Shown piece by piece: positions 4,988-31,721 of a DNA stretch of 32,000 nt. The DNA comes from Candidatus Saccharimonadota bacterium (GTDB lineage: Bacteria; Patescibacteriota; Saccharimonadia; Saccharimonadales; Saccharimonadaceae): NCBI RefSeq assembly GCF_025273655.1, contig NZ_CP045921.1, positions 390,001-422,000 on the forward strand. Reading direction: 5' to 3'. Under the pieces are notes generated by a model. It saw only the letters and a list, made by a program, of their open reading frames with translations. It searched no databases and was not told the DNA's origin. The translations under genes and the position numbers were made by a program. Each line of letters starts with the position of its first letter. Positions within the stretch are counted from its first letter, which is position 1.

Positions 4988-5101
4988 ACTGCTACTAGTA
5001 TAGAAGATTTACACGTATGCGTCAGCGAAAACTATTTTACCGGGTCTGTATATGCATAAGTTTTTTGTATTTTGAGGATAGCAGGATATATTGGCTGTAC
5101 T

Positions 5102-5749
5102 ATGAGTAGCGAAATGCACCAAGAGTTTAATGACGAGAACACACCAATCATAGAACCGGCCAAAAAAGGATTCGAATATGTCGCCGATCTAACAAACAGG
5201 CAGCTCGAACTGTTCAATGAAGCACTTGTAGAATATACGGATACTCCAAGCGTTAAAAATGACGAAGTACTTGTTAGTCTGGTTACGTCGCATGCAGACT
5301 CAGTCCAGCGTACGCTTGAAGCATACGGTGCTGAGTTTGGGGATGGAATTGCTGCGTTTCGAGCGATGACATATTACGTGGTGGGACTCGAGCAGCGTCG
5401 TGTAGAAATGATGAATAGCCTTGGATTAGAGGGTGCGGAGTTTAAAGTTATAAACAATGGAGATGTCGAAGGGGTTCTCTATGTGGCGCCAGAATATGAC
5501 GACACTGACACTACGGCGAGTGTCGAGCCTAGTGAAGTGGTCGAGACAGTGCACAGTTTTTATATGGGTAGATTTGGTGCAGACCTAAAGACTCTCCATG
5601 ATGCTGCACACGCCACGTATGATAACTCCCCTCGAGGTAGACGTAAAAAGTACATGCGGCATGTTGGTAGCTACGCGCTCGATGTCACGAAGGTAGCGGT
5701 TGGCGTGGTGGGCGCTATAGCTATAGCCAAAAAAACGAAATTATTGTGA
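5102..5749 (+). CDS. Hypothetical protein with C-terminal hydrophobic anchor
   Basis: ORF track starts at TTG 5072. ATG 5102 (MSSEMHQEF...) is preferred and is preceded by TATATT (5087-5092). C-terminal VAVGVVGAIAIA is TM-like. No family recognised. Confidence 0.5.
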   Translation: MSSEMHQEFNDENTPIIEPAKKGFEYVADLTNRQLELFNEALVEYTDTPSVKNDEVLVSLVTSHADSVQRTLEAYGAEFGDGIAAFRAMTYYVVGLEQRRVEMMNSLGLEGAEFKVINNGDVEGVLYVAPEYDDTDTTASVEPSEVVETVHSFYMGRFGADLKTLHDAAHATYDNSPRGRRKKYMRHVGSYALDVTKVAVGVVGAIAIAKKTKLL

Positions 5750-6538
5750 TGACTGCCGTTGGCGGAACTGCTCGTACAGACATACGGCCGTCGCTGCTGC
5801 GACGTTGAGTGATTCAACTGGCGTGGCGGCCTGGGGGATGTGGACGCGCTCTGTGGTGAGGGTCGCAAGCACGGTCGATACGCCTTGCCCTTCGTTGCCT
5901 ACAAGCCACGCGGTAGGTTGCCTTAAGTCTAGGTCGTATAAGTCGACACTATCGCCGGTGAGCATGGTGGCATATACGGGTGTTTGAGACGATTTGATGA
6001 GCTTCTGCAGGTTGCTTTGCTCGTAAATGCGTAGTGCAAATTGTGCACCCATGCCAGCGCGCAATGCTTTTGGCGACCATGCAGAGGCACAATCTGGCGA
6101 TAGGTAGACATCCGTGATTCCTGAAGCGGCTGCGGTGCGTAGCATGGTGCCGAGATTGCCCGGGTCTTGCACGTCTTCGACAAGCAACGCATCTCCTATG
6201 AGCGCCGTGTTCGAGGCTTCGGGTATGGAGAATACGATAGAAATACCGACCGCAGCGTGTACGTCGGCGACAGACTCATAGATATTGTCGGCAAACTCGA
6301 TGAGCGTTGTGCTGGTATGCTGAAGTTGCCGCACGAGTTCGATTACCTCTTCGTTTGCCTGCGCGGCTGTAGCGATGATACATATTTCTGGCGTGTCGCC
6401 AGTGTCGAGGAAGCTGTGCGCGAGGTGCGTGCCACTCGCGATCGTCCTGCCTTCTTCGCGTCGAGTTTTACCACTAGTGGCGAGCTTGCGAAGTCTGCGA
6501 ACGGTTGGGTTGTTATTGCTGGTGATAATATCGGACAT
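5741..6538 (-). CDS. TrmH/SpoU family RNA 2'-O-methyltransferase
   Basis: 265 aa. SpoU motifs DPGNLGTMLRTAAASG, WLVGNEGQGVS and IPQAATPVESLNVAAATAVCLYE. Confidence 0.85.
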   Translation of the reverse strand: MSDIITSNNNPTVRRLRKLATSGKTRREEGRTIASGTHLAHSFLDTGDTPEICIIATAAQANEEVIELVRQLQHTSTTLIEFADNIYESVADVHAAVGISIVFSIPEASNTALIGDALLVEDVQDPGNLGTMLRTAAASGITDVYLSPDCASAWSPKALRAGMGAQFALRIYEQSNLQKLIKSSQTPVYATMLTGDSVDLYDLDLRQPTAWLVGNEGQGVSTVLATLTTERVHIPQAATPVESLNVAAATAVCLYEQFRQRQSSQ

Positions 6539-6671
6539 AACTATGCTCCAGTATAGCGCATATGCCTCATGGCCGTAGACGAAAATAGCAAAAAATTATA
6601 CAATATAAATAATCGCATCGTGCGATAGTGCGAGTATATATTCGCACCTCCTCTTGAGGAAGGAACCTGTT

Positions 6672-6896
6672 ATGGGAGACAAGATTGAAAAATGGTGTGG
6701 TGTGGTCGCAGGAGTGACCGTGCTTGCGATGCTGCTGGCGGGTATCTTCTATACCACTCCCGGCTCGGATGCAGGACCAATTTGGTGGGCAGGGGTCGCC
6801 ATGCTGGTCATGTTGCTCTCCGTCGTATACGGGGCGAGAAGCACCGATCGACGTACTGTGCGACGGATGCGGGAGCATCATGCTCGCCTGGAGTAA
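6672..6896 (+). CDS. Small membrane protein (2 TM)
   Basis: GAGGAAGGA SD (6656-6664) upstream of ATG 6672. Two hydrophobic helices (VVAGVTVLAMLLAGIF and WWAGVAMLVMLLSVV). The competing minus ORF 6567..6881 lacks such signals. Confidence 0.45.
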   Translation: MGDKIEKWCGVVAGVTVLAMLLAGIFYTTPGSDAGPIWWAGVAMLVMLLSVVYGARSTDRRTVRRMREHHARLE

Positions 6897-6912
6897 ACCT
6901 TCCCTAGGGGCG

Positions 6913-6973
6913 CCGCCGCGCTAGCGTGACAACGCAGGGAGCGGCGGACGCGCACCGGAGAAATTCGGTGCGC
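6913..6973 (+). terminator. Two adjacent GC-rich hairpins downstream of the small membrane gene (no U-tract)
   Basis: CCGCCGC (6913-6919) pairs with GCGGCGG (6941-6947). GCGCACCG (6950-6957) pairs with CGGTGCGC (6966-6973). Locally very GC-rich compared with flanks. Confidence 0.35.
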
Positions 6974-7098
6974 ACTCACTCTGACTCTCCAGTTAATTGA
7001 TCAAATATATCATATATGGTATTATATAATTTACGCATATGTTCATAACATGAATGTGTGTAGACAGTGTAGGGATCAAGCCGCTCGAAGGAGCACTG

Positions 7099-7545
7099 AT
7101 GAAAGATTTGGCCAAGGAGTGCGACAGCGTGATCGTGTTTGGTTCGGTATCTCGGACGCTGTGCAAACAGGTCATGCGAGAAGCCGGATATCGTCGACAC
7201 CAAGGCAGCCGCGTGATCACAGCCGGTGCGCTGTGGGCACCGCATCTGCGCGAATACTCGTGGATGCAGCCGCGTACGGTGCAAGAAGTGCTCGACAGGG
7301 TTGCGCCGACACTCGTCGACAAGGCATCTGAGCAGCAGCAACTCATTGAGGAGCGGTTGCGCAATCCTCTGCTACGCAACGTCGGCCTCATCATCTACGA
7401 GGCCTCCATGCCGTTCTACGGTACACCGTACGGCGATACACCCGAGCTATTTCGCAGGGCAATACACCAGCTGCAGTCTGAATATGGATGGCCACGAGCC
7501 AAGGTGTATGCCGTAGCTCAGCACTATCGTCAGCGTCGGTGGTAA
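7099..7545 (+). CDS. Hypothetical protein (148 aa)
   Basis: AAGGAG SD (7088-7093) 5 nt upstream of ATG 7099. The overlapping minus-strand ORFs are Arg/Ser-rich shadows. Confidence 0.5.
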   Translation: MKDLAKECDSVIVFGSVSRTLCKQVMREAGYRRHQGSRVITAGALWAPHLREYSWMQPRTVQEVLDRVAPTLVDKASEQQQLIEERLRNPLLRNVGLIIYEASMPFYGTPYGDTPELFRRAIHQLQSEYGWPRAKVYAVAQHYRQRRW

Positions 7546-7793
7546 TTTCTCGGTTGGTATGTAACCCCGGGGTGTGAAGCTTCAGCGCTCGGGCTCTTCC
7601 TTGCACTGTCGCTTTACCAAAGATTTCAATCGTGTTGAAGTTTTTGGTGAAGGACTATTTTAAACCTTTATTCATACAGTATAAGTATTCTGGATTGGAT
7701 AATTCGTGTGGGCAGACACTCGGACTGTTGTATAGAACACGCCGAGTGTGGTTAAATAACCATAAGTAACTCTGGCGAGGAGAGTGGAGAAAA

Positions 7794-9083
7794 ATGGATT
7801 TCGATTTCGACTTTGAAGACGCGAAGCCGTGGCTAATCGGCATCGGTGCGATTTTGCTGGTAGCTGGCGTATTGTTTGGCATGACGTATATCAACGTCAA
7901 CAGTGCCATTGCCAAGTGTACGGCTGCCGGGTATGCCAAGCCGGACTGGTCGTGGCGTGTCACCTCGTGTCCGGCCGACGAAGATTATGCCAGTGATAGC
8001 GTCGCACTAGTGGTCGGTAATACGGCCGATAGTCCTATGCCCAAGCTCACCGATGAAGCAGACAAATATCTGCGTAATTCCCTCGCCCAGACAGACGGTG
8101 ATCTCCAGTTCTATCTCTACTCTGCCACGCCAAGCGGCTCACGCATTCAGCTCGACGATCTGAAGGTGAAAAAAGCTGGAAATGTGAATTCATTCGTCAC
8201 AAATTCGAGCCAGACTGTCGACAAGATCGACAAAGCGATTGCTCAGCCCGCAAGCGAAAACGGTGCCGACTATTTCAACAACATTGTAGCTGCCGGTCGT
8301 GCCGTCACGACGTCACCCAGTACCAAATCACCACTGGTGCTCGTAGTTGGTTCGGGATTGTCGGATTCGCAGCCGCTCAATTTTGCCAATGGTGATCTGC
8401 TCCATGCCGATCCGGCGGATGTGCTGGCGCAGCTCAAAGCCAAAGGTACAATCGCTCAAGATGATCTCAAGGGCGTCCGCATCGTGTGGTCCGGACTAGG
8501 TGTTACTACATCGCCCCAACAGCCACTCGACGCCACGGAGAAACGCAATCTCCGCAATATTTACAATACTATTTTCAACTACATGGGCGCTCGTCTCGTC
8601 ACTGACGATACTGTCATGGCGACAGAGAGCGTCAAGACAGACAAAACAGTGACGCCGGTGACTGTCAATGGACTGTCTGGCGGCGTGGTGGTCTACAAAC
8701 TTGGCGAAAACTCCATCGGATTCAAACCTGGTACGGCTACTATCCAAGATCAGGCAAAAGCCAACTCGGCACTCGACGGTATCATTGCGAATTACCAAAA
8801 ATGCCCAGCTGCAAAACTGACTGTCGAGGGCTACACGGCGCGGCCAAATGGCACCATCGAAGCGACTAGTGACTTGTCGAAATCTAGGGCGGACGCTGTC
8901 AAAAAGCTGCTCGTGGCGCGTGGTGTGAACGATGCAGCCGTGATGGCGACTGGCAAAGGCTCAAGTGATTTCGAAGGCCGTGTCGACGAAAAAGACGCGA
9001 CCGGTACATGGAATAGCGAAAAAGCACAGGCCAATCGTGTCGTCATCGTCACTATGGATAGCAGTGGAGGATGTAGTGGCTAA
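7794..9083 (+). CDS. OmpA-family (peptidoglycan-binding OmpA_C-like) protein with N-terminal TM anchor
   Basis: N-terminal TM helix (WLIGIGAILLVAGVLFGM). C-terminal LTVEGYTARPNG...SKSRADAVKKLLVARGV...ANRVVIVTM is OmpA_C-like. GGAGAG SD upstream. Confidence 0.75.
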   Translation: MDFDFDFEDAKPWLIGIGAILLVAGVLFGMTYINVNSAIAKCTAAGYAKPDWSWRVTSCPADEDYASDSVALVVGNTADSPMPKLTDEADKYLRNSLAQTDGDLQFYLYSATPSGSRIQLDDLKVKKAGNVNSFVTNSSQTVDKIDKAIAQPASENGADYFNNIVAAGRAVTTSPSTKSPLVLVVGSGLSDSQPLNFANGDLLHADPADVLAQLKAKGTIAQDDLKGVRIVWSGLGVTTSPQQPLDATEKRNLRNIYNTIFNYMGARLVTDDTVMATESVKTDKTVTPVTVNGLSGGVVVYKLGENSIGFKPGTATIQDQAKANSALDGIIANYQKCPAAKLTVEGYTARPNGTIEATSDLSKSRADAVKKLLVARGVNDAAVMATGKGSSDFEGRVDEKDATGTWNSEKAQANRVVIVTMDSSGGCSG

Positions 9084-9774: not shown

Positions 9775-11078
9775 TGGCTAAAAGTTTTCTCAAAGTACTC
9801 GTACGGCTCCAGAAGCCGAGCCAGAAGCAGATTGAACTGGTACGGCGCCGTGCACTCGCAACGGTCAAACATACTCGCCGCAACCAGAAGCTCGATGCCA
9901 AATCGGTCGAAGCTATGCTGCGTATCGTCAGTGGTCGTTACAGCGATTTGCACGCAGCGCTCGAGACGGAATACCGCAAGCGAGAACAGCGCATCGACAC
10001 TACCTATGCTCGCGGGCTCAAAAAGACCAAGGCCTCACTTATTAAAGTCGAGCAAGATATCAATCAACTCGAATCGATGGGCTACGACAAGACGACGTCC
10101 GGTATTGACTACGACGATGCGGTGGCCCGTTTGCGCCTGCTCGCCCAGGGCAACGAATCGCGCGATACGGATGCTGTCAAATTGGCCAAAGCCCGCCGCT
10201 CCCCCACCCCATACAAACGCCCTGTCGACACTGATACGGCGTTCGCTACTCCATACGGCCACTACTGGGTTGTAGCGGGCTGTCTCCTGCTCAGTTTTCT
10301 CGATATGTTGCTGCTTAGTGCGGCTATCGAACGCTTGCTCGATACCGATCAGCTCAACGCCAGTATTTTGGCATTTGCACTGGCCCTTGTCGGTAGTGTC
10401 ACGGCGTTTCTATGGGGTCGATCGCAGGCAGCGCATCCAGCTCGGCGCGGCTGGTCATTTTATGAGCCATGGATCTGGATTACTATTGCTCTCATCTTTG
10501 TCGCAATTCGCGGTGTGGTTATCTATATGGATATTCAGGAGTATCCAGACAATATCTTCACGATCATCAGCTCCGAAGCGCTTATGGCACTACTTCTGAC
10601 GGTACTTTATCTGGGGACGGGGCTGGCAATTCGTGCCGAAGCCCGCAAGATATTTGATCCGACGATGTTTAGTCAGTGGCGCAGTATTCGCATGGCCAAG
10701 AAGATTCAGCATCGTATTGCAAAGAAATATGCTCGCGCCGAGAGTATGATTCTCGAGCTTGAACAGTTCCACAAAAACTACCGTGCACTCAAAAAGATGT
10801 ATATCATCCGCAAAAACTCACTCTATGATGCTGAGCGTACGACACTGAGTTCTGTTGTCAAACGAGTGCTTGAAGACAATCCGCAGCTCGATCCGCAGGT
10901 GGTCGAAGATATTTTGCAATCAGTGCTAGCTGGTCGCTCGCACATCACTATGGCGGCAAATGAAGGTGCGGTTGTCCGGGCGCAGTCGCCGGCAGTCGCG
11001 AGTACGCGGCTTTCCGCGGCTAGCCCACGTCAGGCCGTCACCAGGCCAGCGCCACGTAAGCCACCAGTGATCCGCTAA
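9774..11078 (+). CDS. Polytopic membrane protein flanked by coiled-coil regions
   Basis: ATG 9774 overlaps the preceding TAA (TAATG). AAGGAG at 9760-9765. About 4-5 hydrophobic helices between residues ~165 and 300. No family recognised. Confidence 0.6.
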   Translation: MAKSFLKVLVRLQKPSQKQIELVRRRALATVKHTRRNQKLDAKSVEAMLRIVSGRYSDLHAALETEYRKREQRIDTTYARGLKKTKASLIKVEQDINQLESMGYDKTTSGIDYDDAVARLRLLAQGNESRDTDAVKLAKARRSPTPYKRPVDTDTAFATPYGHYWVVAGCLLLSFLDMLLLSAAIERLLDTDQLNASILAFALALVGSVTAFLWGRSQAAHPARRGWSFYEPWIWITIALIFVAIRGVVIYMDIQEYPDNIFTIISSEALMALLLTVLYLGTGLAIRAEARKIFDPTMFSQWRSIRMAKKIQHRIAKKYARAESMILELEQFHKNYRALKKMYIIRKNSLYDAERTTLSSVVKRVLEDNPQLDPQVVEDILQSVLAGRSHITMAANEGAVVRAQSPAVASTRLSAASPRQAVTRPAPRKPPVIR

Positions 11079-21216: not shown

Positions 21217-21780
21217 GTGACCAACGCCGACCCAGCAGTGATTGCAAGTATCAACGGTCTCGTCGAAAGCCGGTTTCAGTTGGAAATCGAGCGAGAGGCC
21301 GAAAACCAGCGCTTTCAGACGGCAATAGCAGCTCTGACGCGCGAACACCAAGAGAAGCTCAACAGGTTTGCTGAGCGTGAGCGTGAGCTCGATCCTGATA
21401 TCTGGCGGTCTATTGATCACAACCGCTCTACACTGATCGTGCGAGGTAAGCGTTCTTTTGTCACTATTAGGGCAAAGTTCCAACTTCGCGAAGTGCCAGC
21501 CAAGCTTGAGGTGCTCGACAAAGTGAGTATCATGGAAGCTGCGCATCGCCTGGGTGTGGTGAAGCAAATCGCCAATCCACCAAAAGGTGGTTGGAGGTTC
21601 AACCAAAAGAAGTTCCTCGCCTGGTTGGCTAGTAGCGGCGATCTGTATCGACACTTCGAGCCATTCGTCGAACAGACAGACAAGACCGAGTCGCTGACCA
21701 TCCAGCCCAACACCAATTACACGGTGGAGCATGACAGTCAGCGCATCTCGCCGCCGTCTATCACTATCCAAAAGAGCTAG
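21217..21780 (+). CDS. Mu Gam-like (Ku-like) host-nuclease inhibitor family protein (tentative)
   Basis: GTG start with AGGAGG SD (21205-21210). The N-terminal coiled coil followed by HNRSTLIVRGKRSFVTIRAKFQLREVPAKLEVLDKVSIMEAAHRLGVVKQI...NQKKF aligns by eye with Mu Gam ANRDELTNGGKVKTANLVTGDVSWRVRPPSVSIRGMDAVMETLERLGLQRFI...INKEA. Confidence 0.5.
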   Translation: MTNADPAVIASINGLVESRFQLEIEREAENQRFQTAIAALTREHQEKLNRFAERERELDPDIWRSIDHNRSTLIVRGKRSFVTIRAKFQLREVPAKLEVLDKVSIMEAAHRLGVVKQIANPPKGGWRFNQKKFLAWLASSGDLYRHFEPFVEQTDKTESLTIQPNTNYTVEHDSQRISPPSITIQKS

Positions 21781-21894: not shown

Positions 21895-21960
21895 ACACTT
21901 GTTGTCTCACCGAGGCGACTCTACGCCTTTGGCGTAGGAAGGAACGAGCTAGGAGCAGCA

Positions 21961-22392
21961 ATGCCCAAGATCGACGCCGCCGCACCCGTGGCACCCACGA
22001 AGGAAACCGTCAAGACCCCGCTCGACATCGCTGTCGACAAGGTCGTCGCCGAATCCGACTGCACGCCGGCCGAGGCCAAGACCATGATCACCGACTGGCT
22101 CACGCCGATCGTCGAGCGTTCGCGCATGACCGGCGGCACGGCCTACCCGTCCGACAGCGAGATGTTCGTCGGCGGCTACGGCTCCACCGAGAACACGCGT
22201 TCGTACGCGATCCTCGATCAGGTGATGCCCCACGGAGAGGCGTCGACCCCGGGCTCCGCGCACGAGGCCATCGAGAAGGTCGTACTCGACCCCAGTCGGG
22301 ACGAGTACGGACTCATCCACGATCAGACCGGTGACACGCAGCGCCACTGCACCGTCACCACCATGATCGGGACGGTCTCCGGCCTGAGCTGA
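21961..22392 (+). CDS. Acidic hypothetical protein (143 aa), strongly elevated GC
   Basis: Own promoter, SD and terminators. Hand count of 22021-22080 gives 40 G+C of 60. About 21 D/E versus about 11 K/R by hand count. No family recognised. Confidence 0.55.
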   Translation: MPKIDAAAPVAPTKETVKTPLDIAVDKVVAESDCTPAEAKTMITDWLTPIVERSRMTGGTAYPSDSEMFVGGYGSTENTRSYAILDQVMPHGEASTPGSAHEAIEKVVLDPSRDEYGLIHDQTGDTQRHCTVTTMIGTVSGLS

Positions 22393-22408
22393 TCGGCTCC
22401 TTCCAACC

Positions 22409-22606: not shown

Positions 22607-23101
22607 TCAGCTGCTATCTCTTTTCATTCTGTGCCACAGTCTCGGAATTACCTCGAAGCAAACCGTCACCAATATGATGAACAACACCATCCTCAGATCC
22701 CAATTATATTTATCTAGTACAAGGGCAACGATGATAAGCGACAAAAGTATTACGCCCATCGCCATATCCCAGCCTTCACGACTATACACCCAGCCAAATC
22801 GTACTATATAGTCTTCGGTGTTGGTCAAATCACCACCGCGTACGTTGTTGAGACCCTTTTCTTTCATGAGCTGGCGTGTGATTGTGTTCTCATACGTTTC
22901 CGCATGCTCTTTACTCACAATGCCTAGATCTTCAAACTTTTCAATTTCAATCGGCTTGTGCACCTTTGTCCAGTAGGCACCACGAATACCGAGTTGGTGC
23001 TCGCGAAAACGTGCCTCTGGCGTTTTCGATGTGATACCTACGTACCACTTTTCATTCTCAAGCTTGAGGATGTAAAGCCACCAACGTTTCTCAGACATCA
23101 T
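22607..23101 (-). CDS. GIY-YIG nuclease domain protein with two C-terminal TM helices
   Basis: WWLYILKLENEKWYVGITSKTPEARFREHQ...YENTITRQLM...NNVRGG fits the GIY...YIG...R...E...N pattern. C-terminal MAMGVILLSLIIVALVL and MVLFIILVTVCFEVI are hydrophobic helices. ATG-ATG at 23101/23098 overlaps the hsdR stop. The track's GTG 23113 is an alternative start. Confidence 0.7.
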   Translation of the reverse strand: MMSEKRWWLYILKLENEKWYVGITSKTPEARFREHQLGIRGAYWTKVHKPIEIEKFEDLGIVSKEHAETYENTITRQLMKEKGLNNVRGGDLTNTEDYIVRFGWVYSREGWDMAMGVILLSLIIVALVLDKYNWDLRMVLFIILVTVCFEVIPRLWHRMKRDSS

Positions 23102-25952
23102 CGACAAACACACGTATAAACTTGGTGAACTTGTCTGCTATGCGCTCGATCACACTGCTACGCTCCCGTATGCCAGGCGTTTGCGTTAGTGTGCGCACAT
23201 AGTCGTCTTGCCTAGGTTTGCGTCCACTATACGAATAGTCCGCGATGAGCTTTTCTAGTCGTTCGGTGTCTAGCCCTTCTTCACTGGCAAGTTGCTCGAT
23301 CGCCCTCTTCTCTTCGGCGCTCCAATACTTCTGAAACTCAACGTCTACTTGCTCGCTGTCGGTGATGTCGGGGAGCCAGCCGCTTATGAACTTCTCGATC
23401 AGTTCACGTTTGCTACGGAGTTTTTCGTCGCCGCTCATCAGGTCATCGATCTGTTTGTGCAGCTTGGCTTTTTCGGTGTCGTCGGCATCGACGTACCTTG
23501 CAAGCAGGCGTAGTATGTAGTCGACATTTATCTCGTCGCGACGCACGAGCTCTAGCTCGAAATCTACTTCGTTGAGTATCGAATCTTTCTCCGCGTTGTC
23601 ACCTTTGGTCTCAAAATATAGGTCGAGATATTTGCTTTTGTAATCCTCGAATTGCTGTGCAGTCATAGCCGTGTCGTCGTAGCCGAAATCGGCAAAGCTT
23701 AGCAGTACATTGCGCGTACGCATGACTTCGCGAAACAGCTCTACGAAATGTCGCTTGGCTTCCTCGCCTACAAGCATATCTACGTCACCTAGGCTCGGTG
23801 TATATGCTAGGAGTGCTGTCACTTGGGCGTCAAACTCGTCCACGTACGTTTCGTACGATTTGAGGAATATCGTTTCGCTGGCGTCTTTGTCGCTAAACAA
23901 GCGCACAGCTTCGTCTGTTCGCTTCTTGAGATTGCGAAACACAACGATATTACCCTGTGATTTGACTTCGTTCAGTATGCGATTGGTGCGGCTATAGGCT
24001 TGTAGTAGTCCGTGGTAGCGTAGGTTCTTGTCAACGTAGAGTGTGTTGAGTGTCTTGCTGTCGAAGCCTGTCAGGAACATATTAACCACCAGTAGGATAT
24101 CGATTTCGCGTGACTTCACACGTTTGGCGATGTCTTTGTAGTAGTTGTAAAAGCTTTTGCTATCACGTGTTGTGTAATTGGTGCCAAACATAGTGTTGTA
24201 GTCGCCCATGGCACGTTCGAGTACGTCGCGCGAGTGTTCGTTTATCTGGGCGCTGCCTGCCATGTCGATATCAACTTCGTCGATCATGCCGTCGGCATCT
24301 TTGTCTTCTTCGTTGGCTTGGTAGCTGAAGATCGTCGCGATTTTGAGATTGTGACTACGCGCAGCAAACGCATCGTAGTATTTGCGTAGTACATCCGTCG
24401 AACCTACGCACATCATGGCGGTGAAATCGCGGTTATGCGTCTTGTAGTCGTGATTCGTGATGATATAGTCAGTGATTTTATCTACCCGTGCGTCGCCTTC
24501 CATAGCTTCGCGCGTATCGATAGCTTCTACGTCTATGTCGATATTTGTCTTGCTATCTTCGCGTTGTTTGAACCGCCCTACGTATTCCACGCTAAACTTC
24601 AGTACATTGCCGTCGTTGATTGCATCGGTAATGACATATTCGTGCAGGCACGCGCCGAACAAATCCGCCGTAGTGCGTTTGCCGAAGCGTGAATTAAAAG
24701 TCGCGTTCTCTGCTTTAATTGGTGTACCGGTGAAGCCAAACATCTGGTAATTTGTGAAGTATTCGGTGATATTGCGATGTGTCTCGCCGAACTGAGAGCG
24801 GTGGCACTCGTCGAAGATGAAGACGATTTTGTTGTCACGTACGGATTCCATTGCGCTGGCATGGCGCTCCCGTTTGATGGCATTGTCGAGCTTCTGTATG
24901 GTCGTGACGATGAGCTTGGTGTCGGGGTCGCTGAGCTGCTTCACGAGTGCTTGCGTATTATCGGTGCCGTCGACACTCCCCTCTTTGAAACTGTTGAACT
25001 CTTTGATCGTCTGGTAATCGAGGTCGTTGCGGTCGACGACGAACAGCACTTTGTCTACCGCCGGGTTTTCTGTCATGATCTGCGCCGCCTTGAAGCTGGT
25101 GAGCGTCTTGCCGCTACCCGTAGTGTGCCATATATAGCCGCCAGTGTTTGATCCGCTGTCGACCTTTTCGATGATGCGCTCTACTGCGTAGTATTGATAT
25201 GGGCGCAACACCATCAATACTTTGTCGGTTTCGTTGAGTACGATGTATTTGGTAATCATGCGCGAGACGTGGCATTTCTCCAGGAAATCACGAGCGAATT
25301 CGTCGATCTGACTGATACGCTTGTTTGCTTTATCCGTCCAGTAAAACGTCTGTTTGAAACTCGCCTTTTTGGTGCCGCCGTAACTCACGCTATTGGCATA
25401 GTATTTTGTGTCGACGCCGTTGCTAATGACGAAAAGCTGTACGTATTGGAATAGGCCGTTTGCGCTGGCGTAACTGTGGCGGCGATAGCGATTTATCTGG
25501 TTGAACGCTTCTTTGAGCTCGATACCACGGCGTTTGAGCTCGATTTGCACCAGTGGTAAGCCGTTAATCAGTAGCGTCACATCGTAGCGAGTGCTATACT
25601 CGCCGTCATTTACAATCTGTTGCGCCACTTGGTACTCGTTGTGGCACCATTTGGCCATGTTAATGAATTCTATATAGGCGCTAGTGCCGTCATCGCGCAC
25701 GAGGTGCATTTTGTCGCGCAGTAGCTTGGCGCGGTCAAACACGTTGCCTTTGTCTAGGTGGTTTACGACGCGTTTAAACTCCGCGTCGCTCAGTGGTGTA
25801 TCACCAAGCTTCTCGGCGTTGTGCTTTTCTAACTGGCACTTGAGGTTCGCGAGCAACTCGTCGTTGTCTGCGATGATGACGCGCTCATACCCCTGCTCCA
25901 CGAGTTGGGCTACAAGGTTGTTCTCGAGGGTTTGTTCAGATTGGGTTGTCAT
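23091..25952 (-). CDS. hsdR: Type I restriction enzyme R subunit (HsdR)
   Basis: N-terminal SEQTLENNLVAQLVEQGYERV, Walker A HTTGSGKT, DEAH-box FIFDECHRSQ, and helicase motifs throughout. Start set at ATG 25952 (MTTQSEQ...); the track's 26033 adds 27 aa that overlap the upstream ORF. Confidence 0.95.
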   Translation of the reverse strand: MTTQSEQTLENNLVAQLVEQGYERVIIADNDELLANLKCQLEKHNAEKLGDTPLSDAEFKRVVNHLDKGNVFDRAKLLRDKMHLVRDDGTSAYIEFINMAKWCHNEYQVAQQIVNDGEYSTRYDVTLLINGLPLVQIELKRRGIELKEAFNQINRYRRHSYASANGLFQYVQLFVISNGVDTKYYANSVSYGGTKKASFKQTFYWTDKANKRISQIDEFARDFLEKCHVSRMITKYIVLNETDKVLMVLRPYQYYAVERIIEKVDSGSNTGGYIWHTTGSGKTLTSFKAAQIMTENPAVDKVLFVVDRNDLDYQTIKEFNSFKEGSVDGTDNTQALVKQLSDPDTKLIVTTIQKLDNAIKRERHASAMESVRDNKIVFIFDECHRSQFGETHRNITEYFTNYQMFGFTGTPIKAENATFNSRFGKRTTADLFGACLHEYVITDAINDGNVLKFSVEYVGRFKQREDSKTNIDIDVEAIDTREAMEGDARVDKITDYIITNHDYKTHNRDFTAMMCVGSTDVLRKYYDAFAARSHNLKIATIFSYQANEEDKDADGMIDEVDIDMAGSAQINEHSRDVLERAMGDYNTMFGTNYTTRDSKSFYNYYKDIAKRVKSREIDILLVVNMFLTGFDSKTLNTLYVDKNLRYHGLLQAYSRTNRILNEVKSQGNIVVFRNLKKRTDEAVRLFSDKDASETIFLKSYETYVDEFDAQVTALLAYTPSLGDVDMLVGEEAKRHFVELFREVMRTRNVLLSFADFGYDDTAMTAQQFEDYKSKYLDLYFETKGDNAEKDSILNEVDFELELVRRDEINVDYILRLLARYVDADDTEKAKLHKQIDDLMSGDEKLRSKRELIEKFISGWLPDITDSEQVDVEFQKYWSAEEKRAIEQLASEEGLDTERLEKLIADYSYSGRKPRQDDYVRTLTQTPGIRERSSVIERIADKFTKFIRVFVDDV

Positions 25953-25957
25953 TGTTT

Positions 25958-26599
25958 TTATTTTATTCCAATAATCTTCTTCAATTTTGATCCTATGCTT
26001 GTGATGCTTATTCTCTGAAGATCCTCGAGACATTTTTCAGCATCATTTTTGTGTTTCACTGGAGTATATCCAAAATCGCCTTGTCGACTCATATAAAGCT
26101 TATCGAATATATCTAGCTTCTGATTATAGTTTTCGAGAACAGCCTCGGCATTTTCGGAGCCCGATTCGTCAATAGTGTTTTTCGTTATATCTGCAATCGC
26201 ACGCTGTTTATTGATTCGTATTTGTGCAACATCCTCACCGAAAGACTTATTGTTTTCCGTAATAGCTTCATCAAGTAACCTAGCGGTCTGATAGAAGTCC
26301 GTAACCGTCTCCCATTCGTCTTTGTCGAAGTCTGCGGAAAACATATGACTATATTTCGACCATGCATCCTCGCGTAATATGTTAAAGTTTAGGTTACTGA
26401 GACCGCCTTGACGCACGGCATCTTTTACCTTAGGAATGCACCTTTCGATATGCTGTATCTCTAAATAAATAGAGTTTGCAGCCGCTCTTTTGCTGTCTTT
26501 CTTTTGACGCGTATAGATATAGAGAGCAACCAGGCCTGCTATAAGGGTAACGACCGTTTGCAGAAAATTTGAATTTAAGAGTTCCCAGGCAGCTTCCAT
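25958..26599 (-). CDS. Hypothetical protein with a single N-terminal TM helix (213 aa)
   Basis: TM helix FLQTVVTLIAGLVALYIYT followed by a charged helical domain. Its ATG 26599 directly abuts the upstream TAG (26602..26600). Its stop lies 5 nt before the hsdR ATG. AT-rich (22 G+C of 60 in 26041-26100). Confidence 0.6.
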   Translation of the reverse strand: MEAAWELLNSNFLQTVVTLIAGLVALYIYTRQKKDSKRAAANSIYLEIQHIERCIPKVKDAVRQGGLSNLNFNILREDAWSKYSHMFSADFDKDEWETVTDFYQTARLLDEAITENNKSFGEDVAQIRINKQRAIADITKNTIDESGSENAEAVLENYNQKLDIFDKLYMSRQGDFGYTPVKHKNDAEKCLEDLQRISITSIGSKLKKIIGIK

Positions 26600-26902
26600 C
26601 TACTTAGCCTCTTTACTTCCTAATTCCGACAGCTTGTCAATCGTTTTAATATCAAGCTTATTAAGTACGTCTAGCATTGCAGACATAGATTCCACTTCAT
26701 CCTTGCTTGGTATCTTGCTGCTCTCTAGTGACCGTATCTTTTCTTGTTGTGCCTCGATCGTTACATATGCACGTTCTAATAGATCGCGCATTTTTTGTAT
26801 CTTTTTATCGCTATCACCTTCGCTAAAATCGACAGTTGTCTTCAATGAGCCAAGTAGCTCACTGATATTACCCGCATTATTGAGATTGTCATAATCGCTC
26901 AT
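26600..26902 (-). CDS. Small coiled-coil hypothetical protein (100 aa)
   Basis: AAGGA SD upstream of ATG 26902. Heptad-like E/K/L-rich sequence. Starts 16 nt after the hsdS stop. Confidence 0.55.
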   Translation of the reverse strand: MSDYDNLNNAGNISELLGSLKTTVDFSEGDSDKKIQKMRDLLERAYVTIEAQQEKIRSLESSKIPSKDEVESMSAMLDVLNKLDIKTIDKLSELGSKEAK

Positions 26903-26918
26903 TTCTATATTTTTCCTT

Positions 26919-28127
26919 TCATATAAACATCCTCTGCAAAAGTCCCTTCTTCCACTGCTTGGCGGCGGTGAGGCGGGTTTGTTCTGCTGCTATTTTATCA
27001 TCGAGCGCGATGAGGAGGGCGGCGATTTTTTGTTGTTCCTCTTTTGATTTTGGCAAAGTAAGCTCAATATTGAAAAAATCTGAAACGCCGATATTTAGCA
27101 GACCGTGATTTCTTGCGCCCTCTTGGGCTACTTTTTCAATTTCAGAATCTTGAAGCCCATATACGAAAACTTGCTCGAAAAAGTCATTATCATTTGAATC
27201 TTTTGCTCTAAAACAGATATATAAGGTCGATACGATTCCCTTGGTGTACAGGTTTAATTTTTTGATTGCACCCATCGGATATCCGGCTGAATAGCTTTTG
27301 TTGTATGCAAAGTCTCCCATGGTAAGCATGAAATAGTTTGTTACATTCTTTGCGGCAACAATCTTACTAAAGAAATCGGTCTGACTTATAAGTCCCTGCT
27401 GTGCAGAAATGGTAAGTACATTTTGATTGTTTTCTTTATTTTTGTCTGTAACTCGATCAAATAGATCTCCGAGTCGCTTTTTCTCCCACTCAGGATATGG
27501 ATTTCCGTTTTCGTCCCTGAAGCGAATAGCCTGGGTGAAGATTTTTTGCATGACACCTTTTTTATACTTCTGTAGCAGCTCAAGCTTTTTCTCGCCCGCC
27601 GCAATCCGCTCATCGACGAGTGTCAAAAATTCGGCAATTTTTTCCTGCTCTGGTTTTGAAGGGACGCTAAGTTTGGTTTTTTGAAACTCACCCTTACTAA
27701 TAATTGGAACAGCTTGCTCTCCGGCAAGCAAAGATATTCTTCTAGATAAGCGGCTCAATGCCAAATAAACAAAGTCGTCGTCAACATTATTATCATCTCC
27801 AATCACGGAATTGATTTGCTGATTGGTTGTGCACTCTATCGTAGCCTGGGCTGTTTTCCCAATCGTTGATCCTATACATACAAACAAAGTGCTACCTACT
27901 GGTATAGGTCTAGATTTTTCAAAGCCTTTCTGCGATAATTTTGTTCTTGTATTTGTTACATATCGTCCACTATTCATGTCAGCGGGGCTAATAAATAAAA
28001 ATTCATCACCGTACAGGCTCATATCTGCGGTACTCGGAGTGCTACCGGTAACTACTCGAGCAATATCGCCAAGCTTCTTTAACTGCCATTTATCAGTAAA
28101 CGCTGGAAAACGAAGTTGAGGAGTCAC
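26919..28127 (-). CDS. hsdS: Type I restriction-modification S subunit (HsdS), two target recognition domains
   Basis: LRFPAFTDKWQLKKLGDIARVVTGSTPS at the N-terminus. Two conserved spacer repeats, EQEKIAEFLTLVDERIAAGEKKLELLQKYKKGVMQKIF and EEQQKIAALLIALDDKIAAEQTRLTAAKQWKKGLLQRMF. GTG start 28127. Confidence 0.9.
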   Translation of the reverse strand: MTPQLRFPAFTDKWQLKKLGDIARVVTGSTPSTADMSLYGDEFLFISPADMNSGRYVTNTRTKLSQKGFEKSRPIPVGSTLFVCIGSTIGKTAQATIECTTNQQINSVIGDDNNVDDDFVYLALSRLSRRISLLAGEQAVPIISKGEFQKTKLSVPSKPEQEKIAEFLTLVDERIAAGEKKLELLQKYKKGVMQKIFTQAIRFRDENGNPYPEWEKKRLGDLFDRVTDKNKENNQNVLTISAQQGLISQTDFFSKIVAAKNVTNYFMLTMGDFAYNKSYSAGYPMGAIKKLNLYTKGIVSTLYICFRAKDSNDNDFFEQVFVYGLQDSEIEKVAQEGARNHGLLNIGVSDFFNIELTLPKSKEEQQKIAALLIALDDKIAAEQTRLTAAKQWKKGLLQRMFI

Positions 28128-28939
28128 TTCTGCGCCTCTTGAGCGAGTTTACTGTACCTCTTCTCGTTCTTCATCCAATTACTTCGATGTTTAATAGACT
28201 GCTTCGACTGCGTTAGCCTCCAAGAATCTTTGACCGGCTCATAACCCAGCGCAGCTAACAACTTGACTGCGTACTCTTCGTTCAGCGCAAGGCGCTTTTT
28301 GACCTCCGAAAGTCTCCACTCGCCCTTCTCGTCTAAAAATTCTCTCAACTGATACGGATAGCGTACTCCATTTTTCTCCTTCCAATTATGAACCAATTTT
28401 CTGAGACCTCTATAACGCCTGAATTGCCACACTCTAATCATCCCCCGGTAGCCTAGCATTCCGAGAGAAAGGCTGCTGTCTAGGAAGCCAATCAAGTCAA
28501 ACGTATCGCCTCCAAGTGCACCAAGACCGTCGGGAACTCTTACATAGACGTGATATGCACTACCTTTTACATATCCATCTTCAACAAGTTCACTAACTTC
28601 ACGAAAAGTCCAATCATAAGATAGAGGCATGTAGCCATCGAGAATTTTAATGCCCCCATCTAAATTGAGTCCGTATTTTATTCCGAAAGTTGAATGCCCG
28701 TCACTACCATGTTTTGACTCGGAGCTAAAGGGTACAAGTGAGAGATGTAGAGGAGTTGCTTCATTAATACTTTCGTAGCCCATTTTTTTCTCAGCAACCT
28801 CTTTTGTGCTTTGAATCTTCCGAAGAGCAAGCACGCGTATCGAGTCGCTGTCTTTCACGCTTTCTTCGAAGTCATACTTAATGATACGCCCAAGATTGTC
28901 CGTATCAGTGAGTCTCAACGATATTATAGCTTTTGTCAT
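28124..28939 (-). CDS. Hypothetical protein (271 aa) inserted between hsdM and hsdS
   Basis: ATG 28939 lies 4 nt after the hsdM stop. Its TGA overlaps the hsdS GTG (GTGA). No family recognised. The basic C-terminal half may be helical or wHTH-like. Confidence 0.6.
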   Translation of the reverse strand: MTKAIISLRLTDTDNLGRIIKYDFEESVKDSDSIRVLALRKIQSTKEVAEKKMGYESINEATPLHLSLVPFSSESKHGSDGHSTFGIKYGLNLDGGIKILDGYMPLSYDWTFREVSELVEDGYVKGSAYHVYVRVPDGLGALGGDTFDLIGFLDSSLSLGMLGYRGMIRVWQFRRYRGLRKLVHNWKEKNGVRYPYQLREFLDEKGEWRLSEVKKRLALNEEYAVKLLAALGYEPVKDSWRLTQSKQSIKHRSNWMKNEKRYSKLAQEAQK

Positions 28940-28943
28940 AGCA

Positions 28944-30488
28944 CTAAAACGGCGATCTAACGCCGAGCTCCTTGGTGAATTTGGCTATCTGCGCGTCAAG
29001 GTCTGAGGTTTTGGCGTCGACGACTCGCAGCTCTGATACGACAGTATCGAGGTCAATCTCTGCTTCTTCCTCGAATGTATCGACGTAGCGTGGGATGTTG
29101 AGATTATAATCGTTTTCTTTGATTTCCTCTACCGTCGCGACATGGCTGTATTTGTCTTCGCTCTTTCGCGCGGCGTATGTCTCGATAATCTTGTCGATGT
29201 CGCTCGAGCGAAGGCGGTTTTGGTTTTTGCCTTTTTCGAAATGCTTACTGGCGTCGATGAATAGCACGTCGTCTGCTATCTTGCATTTGCGGAACACTAA
29301 TATGCATGCTGGGATGCTGGTGCCGTAGAACAGATTTGCCGGCAGGCCGATGACGGCATCGAGATAGTTGCGCTCTATAAGCGCTTGGCGAATCACACCT
29401 TCTGCCGCGCCGCGAAACAGCACACCGTGTGGCATCACCACTGCCATAGTACCGCTGTCGCTGAGCTGGTAGACCATGTGTGAGATGAACGCGTAGTCTG
29501 CCTTGCTGCTGGGCGCGACCTTGCCCCATGGACTGAAGCGTTCGTCTTGTGCGTTGAGAGGGTCGCTGTCGCCCGCCCATTTGGCGCTAAAGGGTGGATT
29601 GGCGATGACGGCCTCGAACCTGTATTCAGTATGTCGCGGATCTTTGAGCGTATCGTCTTGTTTGATATCGAACCTATCAAAATGCACATCGTGCAAAATC
29701 ATATTCATACGAGCAAGATTGTACGTGGTATTGTTCATCTCTTGACCGAAATATTCGTCCACCTCAGCGTAGCGGCCGATACGCAGTAGTAGCGAACCCG
29801 AGCCACAGGCTGGGTCGTACACGCTTTTGAGCCGCTTCTTGCCATTCGTGACGATACGTGCGAGTACTTGGCTGACTTCTTGCGGCGTGTAGAATTCTCC
29901 AGCCTTTTTGCCTGCGCCGCTAGCGAACTGGCCGATGAGGTATTCGTAGGCGTCGCCGAGGATATCGATCTGGCTGTTGCCGAGCTGGAAATCGATCTTG
30001 TCGAGGTGTTTGAGCACCCTGGCGATCAGTTCAGCACGAGCGTTGACTGTCTTGCCGAGTTTGGTTGCGTTGAGATCAAGTTCCGAGAACAGCTTATCGA
30101 AATCTTCCTCGCTGTCGGTACCCATGGTGCTGCTTTCGATATTGGCGAGGATACGCTGCAAGTCTTCTATGTAATCGTCGAGTTGAGTGCGCTCGGCCAT
30201 CTTGCTGAAAAGCTCGCTCGGAAGCAGAAAATAGCCGAGATGATCAAGCGCGGCTTTGCGCACTTCGTCGATAATCTCGAAATCGGTGTCTGGCACGTCT
30301 TTGTATACGATATCCTCACTTGCAAGCAAGTCGGTATCTGCGTAGAGCTCCAGCTTTTCGGAGAGGTATTTGTAAAAGATGAAACCAAGAATGTAGTCAC
30401 GAAACTCATCGGCGTCCATCTTACCGCGGAGCTCGTTGGCAATGTTCCAGAGTGATGTTTGGAGTTGTTTTTTCTGATCTTCGGACAC
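28944..30488 (-). CDS. hsdM: Type I restriction-modification M subunit (HsdM, N6-adenine DNA methyltransferase)
   Basis: HsdM N-terminal LWNIANELRGKMDADEFRDYILGFIFYKYLSE, SAM motif VYDPACGSGSLL, and catalytic IANPPFS. GTG start 30488 with GAGAGGGA SD. Confidence 0.95.
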   Translation of the reverse strand: MSEDQKKQLQTSLWNIANELRGKMDADEFRDYILGFIFYKYLSEKLELYADTDLLASEDIVYKDVPDTDFEIIDEVRKAALDHLGYFLLPSELFSKMAERTQLDDYIEDLQRILANIESSTMGTDSEEDFDKLFSELDLNATKLGKTVNARAELIARVLKHLDKIDFQLGNSQIDILGDAYEYLIGQFASGAGKKAGEFYTPQEVSQVLARIVTNGKKRLKSVYDPACGSGSLLLRIGRYAEVDEYFGQEMNNTTYNLARMNMILHDVHFDRFDIKQDDTLKDPRHTEYRFEAVIANPPFSAKWAGDSDPLNAQDERFSPWGKVAPSSKADYAFISHMVYQLSDSGTMAVVMPHGVLFRGAAEGVIRQALIERNYLDAVIGLPANLFYGTSIPACILVFRKCKIADDVLFIDASKHFEKGKNQNRLRSSDIDKIIETYAARKSEDKYSHVATVEEIKENDYNLNIPRYVDTFEEEAEIDLDTVVSELRVVDAKTSDLDAQIAKFTKELGVRSPF

Positions 30489-30518: not shown

Positions 30519-30527
30519 ATTATAGCG
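30519..30527 (-). promoter_or_regulatory. Candidate -10 (CGCTATAAT) for the hsd operon
   Basis: Complement of 30519-30527 reads CGCTATAAT, about 30 nt upstream of GTG 30488. The -35 is weak (TGGCAA). It lies in the 84-nt gap after the 260-aa gene. Confidence 0.45.
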
Positions 30528-30572
30528 AGGTACTTGAGATTTTGCCAGTGAAGAGATTTTCACCCGTGAGAA

Positions 30573-31355
30573 CTACACGTCCATCCCGATATTGCGCATG
30601 GCGTGCTTCATGCTACGTAGCGTGAAGTATGCAAGGTCGAGATGGCGTTGTTCGGGTGAGAACTCACGATCAAACATTGCACGAGCTGCAGTATCGTCTG
30701 TAGATTCTAGCTGTTCGAGGTGTAGAGCTGCATCAGCGCGAAATTGCAGCGGCGTGGGTAGATTGAAAAAATCCATATTAATGTGATCGGAATCGTCATT
30801 TAGATCTGCGATAGTGATTGCGGTTGCTTCATCTTCGTCGTCTTGTGGCATGTTGGTGCATGTGGCAACAATCTCGTTGCCGCCCATGTCGAGATATTTC
30901 GCATTTTGACATACATGGAGCTTCTCGTCTTCGGTATCAATATGCACTTCTACTGATTGGATGGCATTGACAGGTTCGGCTTGTTCGAGCGGGTTTGTAT
31001 ACGCACCGTAGACATACCGGGCTAGGTGTTCGGGCAATGCTACGTTGTCTAGTGCGCTAGTGGCGCAGAAGTTGTAAGTGACCATGGAGAAATCTGCACT
31101 TGGATACTCGCGAGTTGCCATAAAACCGTATTGTGTCGTGAGTGCGCTTGATAGCATTGAAGATTCACCGCGTTGGCGTAAATAGCTGTCTTCTCGAACT
31201 GGATCGGTATGAGTGAGCTCGACGGACCACTCACCGACTTTACGCTCACGAAATCCACGGTGGACTCGTGCAAGTCGATTGAGTTCTAAGAGCAGCGCGT
31301 CTGTAGTGTAGTTGGCGCGGCCGGCGGCGATGCGTTCATGAATAGATGGCTTCAT
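30573..31355 (-). CDS. Acidic hypothetical protein (260 aa)
   Basis: Long ORF with no family recognised. GAGAG lies 5 nt upstream of ATG 31355. Confidence 0.6.
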   Translation of the reverse strand: MKPSIHERIAAGRANYTTDALLLELNRLARVHRGFRERKVGEWSVELTHTDPVREDSYLRQRGESSMLSSALTTQYGFMATREYPSADFSMVTYNFCATSALDNVALPEHLARYVYGAYTNPLEQAEPVNAIQSVEVHIDTEDEKLHVCQNAKYLDMGGNEIVATCTNMPQDDEDEATAITIADLNDDSDHINMDFFNLPTPLQFRADAALHLEQLESTDDTAARAMFDREFSPEQRHLDLAYFTLRSMKHAMRNIGMDV

Positions 31356-31604: not shown

Positions 31605-31648
31605 CATAGAAAAAGCCCCAGACATGAATGCCTGAGGCTTTTTCTATG
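31605..31648 (-). terminator. Hairpin terminator immediately after tRNA-Glu (potentially bidirectional)
   Basis: CATAGAAAAAGCC (31605-31617) pairs with GGCTTTTTCTATG (31636-31648). T5 follows the GC core on both strands. Confidence 0.6.
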
Positions 31649-31721
31649 GTGACCTTACCGGGAATCGAACCCGGATTGCCAGGATGAGAACCTGATGTCC
31701 TAACCGTTAGACGATAAGGCC
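31647..31721 (-). tRNA. tRNA-Glu (anticodon CUC), CCA encoded
   Basis: Reverse complement GGCCTTATCGTCTAACGGTTAGGACATCAGGTTCTCATCCTGGCAATCCGGGTTCGATTCCCGGTAAGGTCACCA folds by hand into a cloverleaf. Acceptor GGCCTTA/TAAGGTC. 3-bp D stem GTC/GAC, typical of tRNA-Glu. Anticodon stem TCAGG/CCTGG with loop TTCTCAT. T arm CCGGG-TTCGATT-CCCGG. Confidence 0.9.

Follow-up and report, generated by a model that had tools for sequence, protein, structure and literature searches.

Genes embedded within type I restriction-modification (RM), BREX, DISARM and Hma loci are often defence systems in their own right, and more than half of them are still unexplained (Payne et al., bioRxiv 10.1101/2024.01.29.577857). 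In the same survey the anticodon nuclease PrrC was almost exclusively embedded in type I RM loci (Payne et al., bioRxiv 10.1101/2024.01.29.577857), and TgvAB provides a validated example of a two-gene system inside a type I RM operon (PMC11411939). Here, we describe a pair of genes in a comparable position in Candidatus Mycosynbacter amalyticus, a cultivated Saccharibacterium, within a stretch of 32,000 nucleotides (positions 390,001 to 422,000 of contig NZ_CP045921.1; hereafter the window, to which coordinates given without a locus name refer). The two open reading frames (ORFs), listed in GenBank as hypothetical proteins GII36_02290 and GII36_02285 and referred to here as small100 and TM213, lie between hsdS and hsdR of a type IC RM operon. 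The pair is an optional cargo that recurs in type I RM operons of Saccharibacteria, and we discuss it below, tentatively, as a candidate for a defence-related module.

In its placement in the hsdS-hsdR slot of a type I operon, the pair resembles PrrC, which resides in EcoprrI, and the RloC-type AAA_13 proteins: these, too, are optional, non-RM cargo, inserted between the hsdS and hsdR genes of a type IC operon and encoded on the strand of that operon, and one sister operon of the window's operon (L093; L-numbers denote the homologous loci that were fetched) carries an AAA_13 protein in exactly this slot. In contrast with PrrC and RloC, which are single soluble ABC-ATPase/anticodon-nuclease proteins, there are two genes here, one of whose products is membrane-anchored, and neither protein contains an ATPase or nuclease domain; no match to AAA_13 or any other ATPase model was obtained for either of them in Pfam, NCBIfam or PADLOC. 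That the cassette might guard the restriction enzyme is pure analogy. TgvAB, from VPI-2 of Vibrio cholerae, is likewise a two-gene unit enclosed by a type I RM cluster, alongside which it functions as a system of its own, but it belongs to the GmrSD-like type IV restriction systems and its domains can be recognised, whereas the pair described here is without such domains and membrane-anchored.

The cassette also fits the selection that defines the 'guilt-by-embedding' candidates (PDCs) of PADLOC, being on the same strand as its host operon, RM-embedded, free of mobility or housekeeping annotation, and represented by homologues elsewhere. This is a criterion and not functional proof, and the cassette differs from the PDCs in matching no PADLOC v2.0.0 model, the PDC models included. 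The survey of Payne et al. used RefSeq, where metagenome-assembled genomes (MAGs) of Saccharibacteria are presumably scarce. The initial annotation of this locus had likened the pair to two-component membrane effector or sensor pairs of phage-defence systems. With RexA/RexB and the transmembrane (TM) effectors of CBASS (Cap15, Saf_2TM), the pair does share an overall layout in which a soluble partner accompanies a membrane protein, but each of those effectors has at least two TM helices, whereas TM213 combines one helix with a large cytoplasmic domain, and there is no relationship in sequence or fold, only stray sub-threshold matches to TM helices. The likeness stands only as an analogy, and it found no counterpart in PADLOC, Pfam, NCBIfam, PHROGs, the PDB or Foldseek searches.

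A conserved, mobile two-gene cassette

The most direct evidence on the nature of the pair comes from L094, the closest relative compared at the DNA level. TM213 and its counterpart in L094 are 91% identical in protein and 78% identical in nucleotide sequence, with a proportion of synonymous differences (pS) of 0.85, which amounts to saturation, and a nonsynonymous divergence (dN) of 0.056; for small100, dN is 0.098 and synonymous sites are again saturated. Low dN at saturated synonymous sites indicates that both genes are translated and under strong purifying selection, and by this comparison both are shown to be real genes. Nucleotide homology between the window and L094 extends over 26867..25955, that is, over the pair alone, while the flanks are unrelated: in L094 the cassette is bordered by an acetyltransferase gene on one side and by radC-hsdM-fic on the other. 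The confinement of homology to the pair is direct evidence that it moves as a cassette.

The association of the two genes recurs elsewhere. A small100 homologue lies directly upstream of a TM213 homologue in 27 unique pairs, usually abutting it or overlapping it by 4 nt, and pairwise identity in one protein tracks that in the other (Pearson 0.93), an effect that shared ancestry of linked genes would also produce. Taken together, these sequence comparisons show that small100 and TM213 form a conserved, mobile two-gene cassette that travels and co-evolves as a unit. In line with the initial annotation, which had regarded the two genes as one insert, the pair is conserved in other genomes both with and without hsd neighbours, and its ORFs are undisrupted in most relatives.

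All genes of the host operon lie on the minus strand and are tightly packed (Table 1). The operon encodes HsdM, a two-domain HsdS, and an HsdR with HSDR_N, a superfamily 2 (SF2) motor and EcoR124_C, the last of which assigns the system to type IC. On the minus strand the junction between small100 and TM213 reads GCTAAG TAG ATG GAAGCTG, with the stop codon abutting the start codon in the same frame; the TAG at 26602..26600 directly before the ATG at 26599, as originally reported, was thus confirmed. Upstream, the TGA of hsdS is followed by 16 nt that include AAGGA and then by the ATG of small100, and downstream, 5 nt separate the TAA of TM213 from the ATG of hsdR at 25952. A longer hsdR ORF beginning at 26033 was considered and rejected as the true start, because the GenBank HsdR (953 aa) is 100% identical from 25952. 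A consensus scan of the minus strand found no promoter site comparable to the one upstream of hsdM (Table 1), and no terminator, inside 25958-28127. The position of this promoter is consistent with a predicted single transcript from hsdM to hsdR.

Table 1. Features of the type IC operon in the window, in order of transcription, with G+C content (GC) and G+C content at third codon positions (GC3)
Feature	Coordinates	Strand	Description	GC	GC3
Promoter	30519..30548	-	Best sigma-70-like match, CTGGCA-18-TATAAT, upstream of hsdM; consensus scan only		
hsdM	28944..30488	-	514 aa, methyltransferase subunit, first gene of the operon; Pfam N6_Mtase (6e-113), HsdM_N; TIGR00497	0.516	0.635
271-aa gene	28124..28939	-	271 aa, embedded between hsdM and hsdS (second cargo slot); no family match	0.441	0.445
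hsdS	26919..28127	-	402 aa, specificity subunit, two target-recognition domains; Pfam Methylase_S (2.1e-30); PADLOC Specificity_I (7.8e-114)	0.409	0.387
small100 (GII36_02290)	26600..26902	-	100 aa, upstream partner in the cassette	0.393	0.396
TM213 (GII36_02285)	25958..26599	-	213 aa, core gene of the cassette	0.399	0.397
hsdR	23091..25952	-	953 aa, type IC (EcoR124-like) restriction subunit; Pfam HSDR_N, SWI2_SNF2, T1R_D3-like, EcoR124_C (6e-63); TIGR00348	0.499	0.629
GIY-YIG protein	22607..23113	-	168 aa, C-terminal hydrophobic segment; Pfam GIY-YIG (6.8e-7); ORF overlaps the hsdR stop and trails the operon		
Whole window				0.503	

TM213 contains a single N-terminal hydrophobic helix (residues 12-30). 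An AlphaFold2 (AF2) model built from a 37-sequence alignment is all-helical, with a mean predicted local distance difference test score (pLDDT) of 77; in this model the TM helix runs on as a stalk to residue 63 and is followed by helices at residues 79-87, 93-145, 151-173, 181-193 and 201-210. Across the family, the count of lysine plus arginine is 0.61 in the 15 residues before the TM helix versus 3.39 after it, which, by the positive-inside rule, places the short N-terminus outside and the domain of ~180 aa in the cytoplasm. TM213 is therefore described as a single-pass membrane protein with a predicted N-out/C-in orientation and a helical cytoplasmic domain of ~180 aa, in agreement with the single-pass architecture first proposed for it. 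Motifs in the alignment include AAANSIxLEIQHxE, DKDEW, QIRxNKQR, FDKLYMSRQ and YTP. The conserved positions are mostly aromatic (W80, F87, W96, F102, F165, Y169 and Y178), together with the acidic residues E47, E52, D92 and E95 and the basic patch QIRxNKQR, and W80 is the sole residue that is invariant across 139 diverse members of the family.

Small100 is acidic (isoelectric point 4.8) and soluble, and is helical in a low-confidence structure model; the coiled coil first proposed for it is at most putative. In an alignment its N-terminus varies, the centre is a helix, and the C-terminus bears a strongly conserved motif, LP[ST]KDEVE[ST]MSAMLDxLNKLDxxT[IL]DKL. Its 29 homologues are 99-120 aa in length and none of the 29 has a Pfam domain.

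Searches for known relatives of either protein returned nothing above noise in Pfam, NCBIfam, PADLOC or PHROGs, and no toxin or antitoxin domain was found in either protein with Pfam, PADLOC or NCBIfam. With the hidden Markov models of PADLOC-DB v2.0.0, small100 had no match and TM213 matched only Drt1b|RTasTM, at an E value of 0.0095 and over its TM helix (residues 8-47), and scans of the family libraries with the 139 TM213-family members gave only sub-threshold coiled-coil or TM noise (DUF5798, DUF7365, tape-measure, Drt1b TM). Nothing meaningful was found among PDB sequences searched with two TM213 family profiles, and a Foldseek search of the TM213 AF2 model against the PDB and BFVD gave best E values of 0.17-0.26, to generic helical bundles, BAR domains and HlyD.

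Two apparent leads did not hold. The UniRef entry for TM213 (UniRef100_A0A857MJD5) is titled 'DUF4760 domain-containing protein', but a profile match could not be reproduced: for TM213 and nine relatives, an hmmscan of Pfam-A at E<=10 did not recover DUF4760, the presence of the model in the Pfam copy used being unconfirmed. DUF4760 was also absent from the families listed for the 139 relatives (25 of the 30 that matched at E<=0.01), and none of the 47 close TM213 homologues has an entry in the precomputed Pfam field. DUF4760 (PF15956) is itself without known function. A lactococcal plasmid 'abortive infection protein' (WP_232035132, 250 aa) matched residues 116-189 in tblastn with E values of 0.06-0.2, but hhalign of the TM213 family profile against it gave a probability of 3.8%, the QIRxNKQR motif does not align to it, and we regard the match as due to chance.

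The hsdS-hsdR slot and the wider family

To place the cassette among related operons, HsdR homologues were picked at graded identity to the HsdR of the window and their operons were then read. The content of the hsdS-hsdR slot differs from one sister operon to the next. It is occupied by a 506-aa AlbA_2/HATPase_c_4 protein in L087 (HsdR 92% identical; 6407-7927), by a 284-aa protein without assignment in L088 (88%), by a second hsdS in L089 (80%), by a small gene and a TM216 gene whose product is 37% identical to TM213 in L050 (75%), by a 251-aa protein, also without assignment, with an RHLIVH string (Rx4H, HEPN-like) in L092 (74%; 6249-7004), and by a 792-aa AAA_13 ATPase, from the family of RloC and PrrC, in L093 (65%; 4626-7004). 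By sequence, the TM213 cassette is one of several alternative cargos, some of which belong to families known in RM-linked defence. The hsdM-hsdS slot is equally variable, with a 271-aa product in the window, products of 164, 186 and 229 aa in sister operons, and RhuM, DUF3800 and GIY-YIG/DUF4357 genes in L003; this operon lineage thus has two hypervariable cargo slots, one on either side of hsdS. Scans of Pfam, PADLOC, NCBIfam and PHROGs gave no match to the 271-aa gene of the window, and none of the fetched loci has a homologue of it. Other embedded genes (271 aa in the window, 204 aa in L036, 186 aa in L050, 284 aa in L088 and 251 aa in L092) were also tried as distant paralogues of TM213, and this was rejected by hhalign.

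L050 is the pair-bearing operon most similar to that of the window, with HsdM 81% and HsdR 75% identical, yet its version of TM213 is only 37% identical, and a blastn comparison found hsdM and hsdR in common but not the centre of the operon. Immediately after the stop codon of its TM216 gene, at 10633-10672, L050 carries a stretch of 40 bp that repeats the 5' end of hsdR with 90% identity, ~750 bp before the true hsdR start (11421). This duplicate looks like the footprint of an insertion or recombination event at the junction between cassette and hsdR.

The initial annotation had proposed a separately acquired cassette on the basis of AT-richness. The limits of homology to L094, the divergence of L050 and the varied cargo of sister operons all support a cassette; the argument from composition failed. 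The compositional difference itself is present: the pair together has a GC of 0.397, within the lowest 1% of 945-bp windows and below the 0.50-0.52 of hsdM and hsdR, and the original hand count of 22 of 60 G+C at 26041-26100 was exact, while that of 30 of 60 at 24001-24060 should have been 29. That the pair is more AT-rich than the flanking hsd genes is, however, true of hsdM and hsdR but not of hsdS, which is also AT-rich (Table 1). The low-GC block spans 25958-28939, comprising the pair, hsdS and the 271-aa gene, i.e., the variable centre of the operon, and the centre is likewise AT-rich in the sister operons L050, L007, L029, L087 and L088. Moreover, the GC of TM213-family genes falls below that of their flanks in 35 of the 36 loci with enough sequence, by a mean of 9.2 GC points, including loci without hsd genes and a clade in which the gene holds a stable position. 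Low GC is a hallmark of this gene family wherever it is found, and since the same deficit is seen in long-resident copies, it neither dates the insertion in this genome nor proves recent acquisition.

Beyond these operons, TM213 belongs to a sizeable family. In a database of 5.8 billion proteins it has 47 close homologues (45-97% identity, all ~213 aa), and a profile search recovered 817 representatives at 50% identity (555 below 1e-10), which are single-domain proteins of ~200-250 aa. Among 22 genome loci with taxon labels, most are Saccharibacteria, Saccharimonadales or Patescibacteria, the exceptions being one Berkiella-labelled MAG, one Gammaproteobacteria-labelled MAG and three MAGs labelled only 'bacterium'. 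Viral contigs contained no relatives, phage records gave only chance-level protein matches to tape-measure genes, and no close DNA match was found in E. coli genomes or plasmids.

The fetched loci form 48 clusters at 85% identity, or ~50 with the window and L094 added. In seven of these (the window, L003/L007, L029/L030, L035/L036, L039, L040 and L050) a TM213 homologue occupies the hsdS-hsdR slot of a type IC operon, and in L094 it lies just upstream of radC-hsdM, so that ~8 of 50 clusters are linked to type I RM, or ~1 in 5 among loci with a few kb on both sides. The stop codon of the TM213 homologue overlaps the start of hsdR in L003 and L029. In L039 and L040 the homologue sits in the slot without the small gene, and other small genes come after it. 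Decayed versions also occur: in a Patescibacteria MAG (L027 3061-4077; L086 ~10001-10756) a single ORF fuses a TM213 fragment to the C-terminal quarter of HsdR, preceded by an hsdM 67% identical to that of the window and with hsdS lost, and in L025 a type IB hsdR is preceded by a TM213 copy with a frameshift. For most family members no hsd gene occurs within 10 kb, and a few have defence-type neighbours (a HamB-like helicase, reverse transcriptases, MADS-like components and methyltransferases).

Several side observations were made on companions of the family and on the surroundings of the operon. Downstream of partnerless TM213 homologues in L038 (2732-2887) and L043 (1201-1362) there is a conserved ORF of 51-53 aa (MxGxxIQIASVxTPAGVALYALTDxGKIYExLVG...), which may be an alternative partner. 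Homologues of the GIY-YIG protein that trails the operon are found 3' of hsdR in L087 (53% identity) and 3' of the TM213 homologue in L038 (58%), and this protein may be another companion gene product at such loci. A tRNA-Glu(CTC) gene at 31647-31721 on the minus strand, followed by a 21-nt hairpin (31605-31648), is located shortly upstream of the hsd region, and an ORF of 260 aa without a family match (30573-31355) sits between the tRNA gene and the hsd region; the tRNA was the only match in an Rfam scan of the window. No island boundary was recognised, in that neither an integrase nor an att-like repeat of the neighbouring tRNA-Glu was found. About 1.3 kb past the 3' end of the operon, a 187-aa ORF on the plus strand (21217-21780) has a weak match to Mu Gam-like end-protection proteins (phrog_491, E 2.7e-6) and may be what is left of a mobile element or phage. 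Close to it, a patch of 66% GC at 21950-22400, in a window of 50% GC, overlaps a 143-aa ORF without a family match (21961-22392, plus strand) and is foreign in composition to its surroundings.

Possible roles of the cassette

Because embedded genes have often been found to be defensive in published work, and because of the nature of the alternative cargos, we favour the interpretation that the cassette is a candidate RM-embedded accessory module with a defence-related role, which we hold tentatively and with somewhat less than even confidence. Under this interpretation the cassette would act beside the restriction enzyme as an accessory defence module and not as a subunit of it. TM213 would serve as executor or scaffold on the inner side of the membrane, acting, for example, through membrane damage in abortive infection or on entering DNA, and small100 would be its cytosolic partner, either a regulator that restrains TM213 or a sensor. 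Co-transcribed with hsdR, the pair could provide a second layer against phages that escape or inhibit restriction, similar to PrrC in EcoprrI.

Several observations weigh against a defensive, two-component role. Our searches linked the pair to no known defence protein, effector or sensor, either by homology or by fold, and no catalytic motif was seen in the TM213 alignment, where conservation is highest at aromatic core residues and in one basic patch. When small100 and TM213 were modelled as a direct fusion by single-sequence AF2 without an alignment, the pLDDT was 40.6 and no interaction was modelled. Many family members, often those below ~45% identity, lack the small partner, and a two-component logic is therefore not general to the family. 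Most members are also not adjacent to RM genes, having instead housekeeping neighbours such as tuf, rpsJ, secY, dnaK/dnaJ, leuS, dnaX, PBP1 and comEC, or lying between pheS and pheT. Finally, the family is large, and its clade in oral Saccharibacteria keeps one position, after pheS, across 17 loci, which looks more core-like than is typical of defence genes.

The main alternative is that TM213 is a lineage-specific membrane protein of Saccharibacteria without a role in defence, serving, for example, in envelope or membrane organisation, division, or the host-attachment lifestyle, its AT-rich gene landing, with the small one or without it, in variable regions, hsd slots included, and having no functional link to restriction. 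The size and uniform single-domain build of the family, its near confinement to Saccharibacteria and Patescibacteria among labelled loci, its mostly housekeeping contexts with the stable pheS-adjacent position in the oral clade, and the lack of an enzymatic motif would all suit such a protein. On the other hand, seven independent lineages carry the gene in the exact hsdS-hsdR slot, with abutting or overlapping codons, and an eighth has it beside hsdM, which is far above chance. The 'stable' position near pheS is itself a 5.3-kb insertion that splits pheS from pheT in the oral-type clade, with the cassette at its edge; in L021 (8633-17531) the insertion between pheS and pheT opens with a small+TM221 cassette and also encodes CYTH/triphosphate-tunnel-like and alpha/beta-hydrolase-like proteins. 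Copies of the gene decay or are replaced, as in L025, L027/L086 and L050, which is how accessory genes behave, and the gene lies ~9 GC points below its flanks nearly everywhere. On balance we consider such a non-defensive role rather unlikely, but still a serious competitor.

The accessory-module interpretation can also be put in a more specific form, in which the cassette would be a new defence system particular to Saccharibacteria and Patescibacteria, with a single-pass effector bearing a new helical domain and a small acidic regulator or sensor. Genetically coupled to type IC restriction, it would form a second defensive line, possibly triggered by evasion or inhibition of restriction, following a PrrC-like logic with a membrane output in place of tRNA cleavage. 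We regard this full scenario as unlikely.

Type I enzymes have been reported to associate with the membrane in E. coli, and TM213 might instead be an accessory part of the type IC enzyme, tethering or regulating HsdR or the whole complex at the membrane, with small100 as an adaptor and translational coupling setting the stoichiometry with HsdR. Its place immediately upstream of hsdR, with the stop/start overlap in L003 and L029 and the 5-nt gap in the window, is suggestive in this regard, as are the predicted cytoplasmic location of its domain and the basic patch QIRxNKQR, which could bind DNA or an acidic partner. However, operons with HsdR proteins 92%, 88% and 80% identical to that of the window are without the cassette, and TM213 is therefore not an obligate subunit of the enzyme. 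Most family members have no hsd genes nearby, the cassette of L094 lies outside the operon, upstream of radC-hsdM, and other genes intervene between the TM213 homologue and hsdR in L039, L040 and L050. We regard a role as an enzyme component as quite improbable. Least probable of all, and highly doubtful, is a toxin-antitoxin-like addiction pair that stabilises the RM island or itself with no dedicated anti-phage role, for although a small upstream gene abutting a larger downstream one, movement as a unit, and a TM-anchored protein that might plausibly be a membrane toxin fit the idea of a toxin with a small neutraliser, no known toxin or antitoxin domain is present, many partnerless family members are intact, which is unexpected if an antitoxin were needed, and small100 lacks a recognised DNA-binding fold through which it could autoregulate.

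Cargo in hsd operons is already known, but the TM213 family is absent from the libraries searched and is not discussed in the literature found; searches of the literature on Mycosynbacter and on RM and defence in Saccharibacteria returned nothing on this pair. Genes embedded in RM loci have repeatedly proved defensive, as with PrrC, TgvAB and the PADLOC candidates, and the surveys that established this were based on RefSeq, in which the Candidate Phyla Radiation is hardly sampled. Here, a sizeable family with no library match occurs, among labelled loci, nearly exclusively in ultrasmall epibiotic bacteria, about whose phages little is known, and it returns repeatedly to one slot of a type IC operon. 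Whatever the role of the pair, the comparison clearly maps the two hypervariable cargo slots of a single operon lineage. If the cassette is not defensive, TM213 would still be a conserved lineage-specific membrane protein worth naming, and if it is defensive, it would represent a new type of effector and a first point of access to immunity in Saccharibacteria, in a species for which co-culture with Gordonia is possible.

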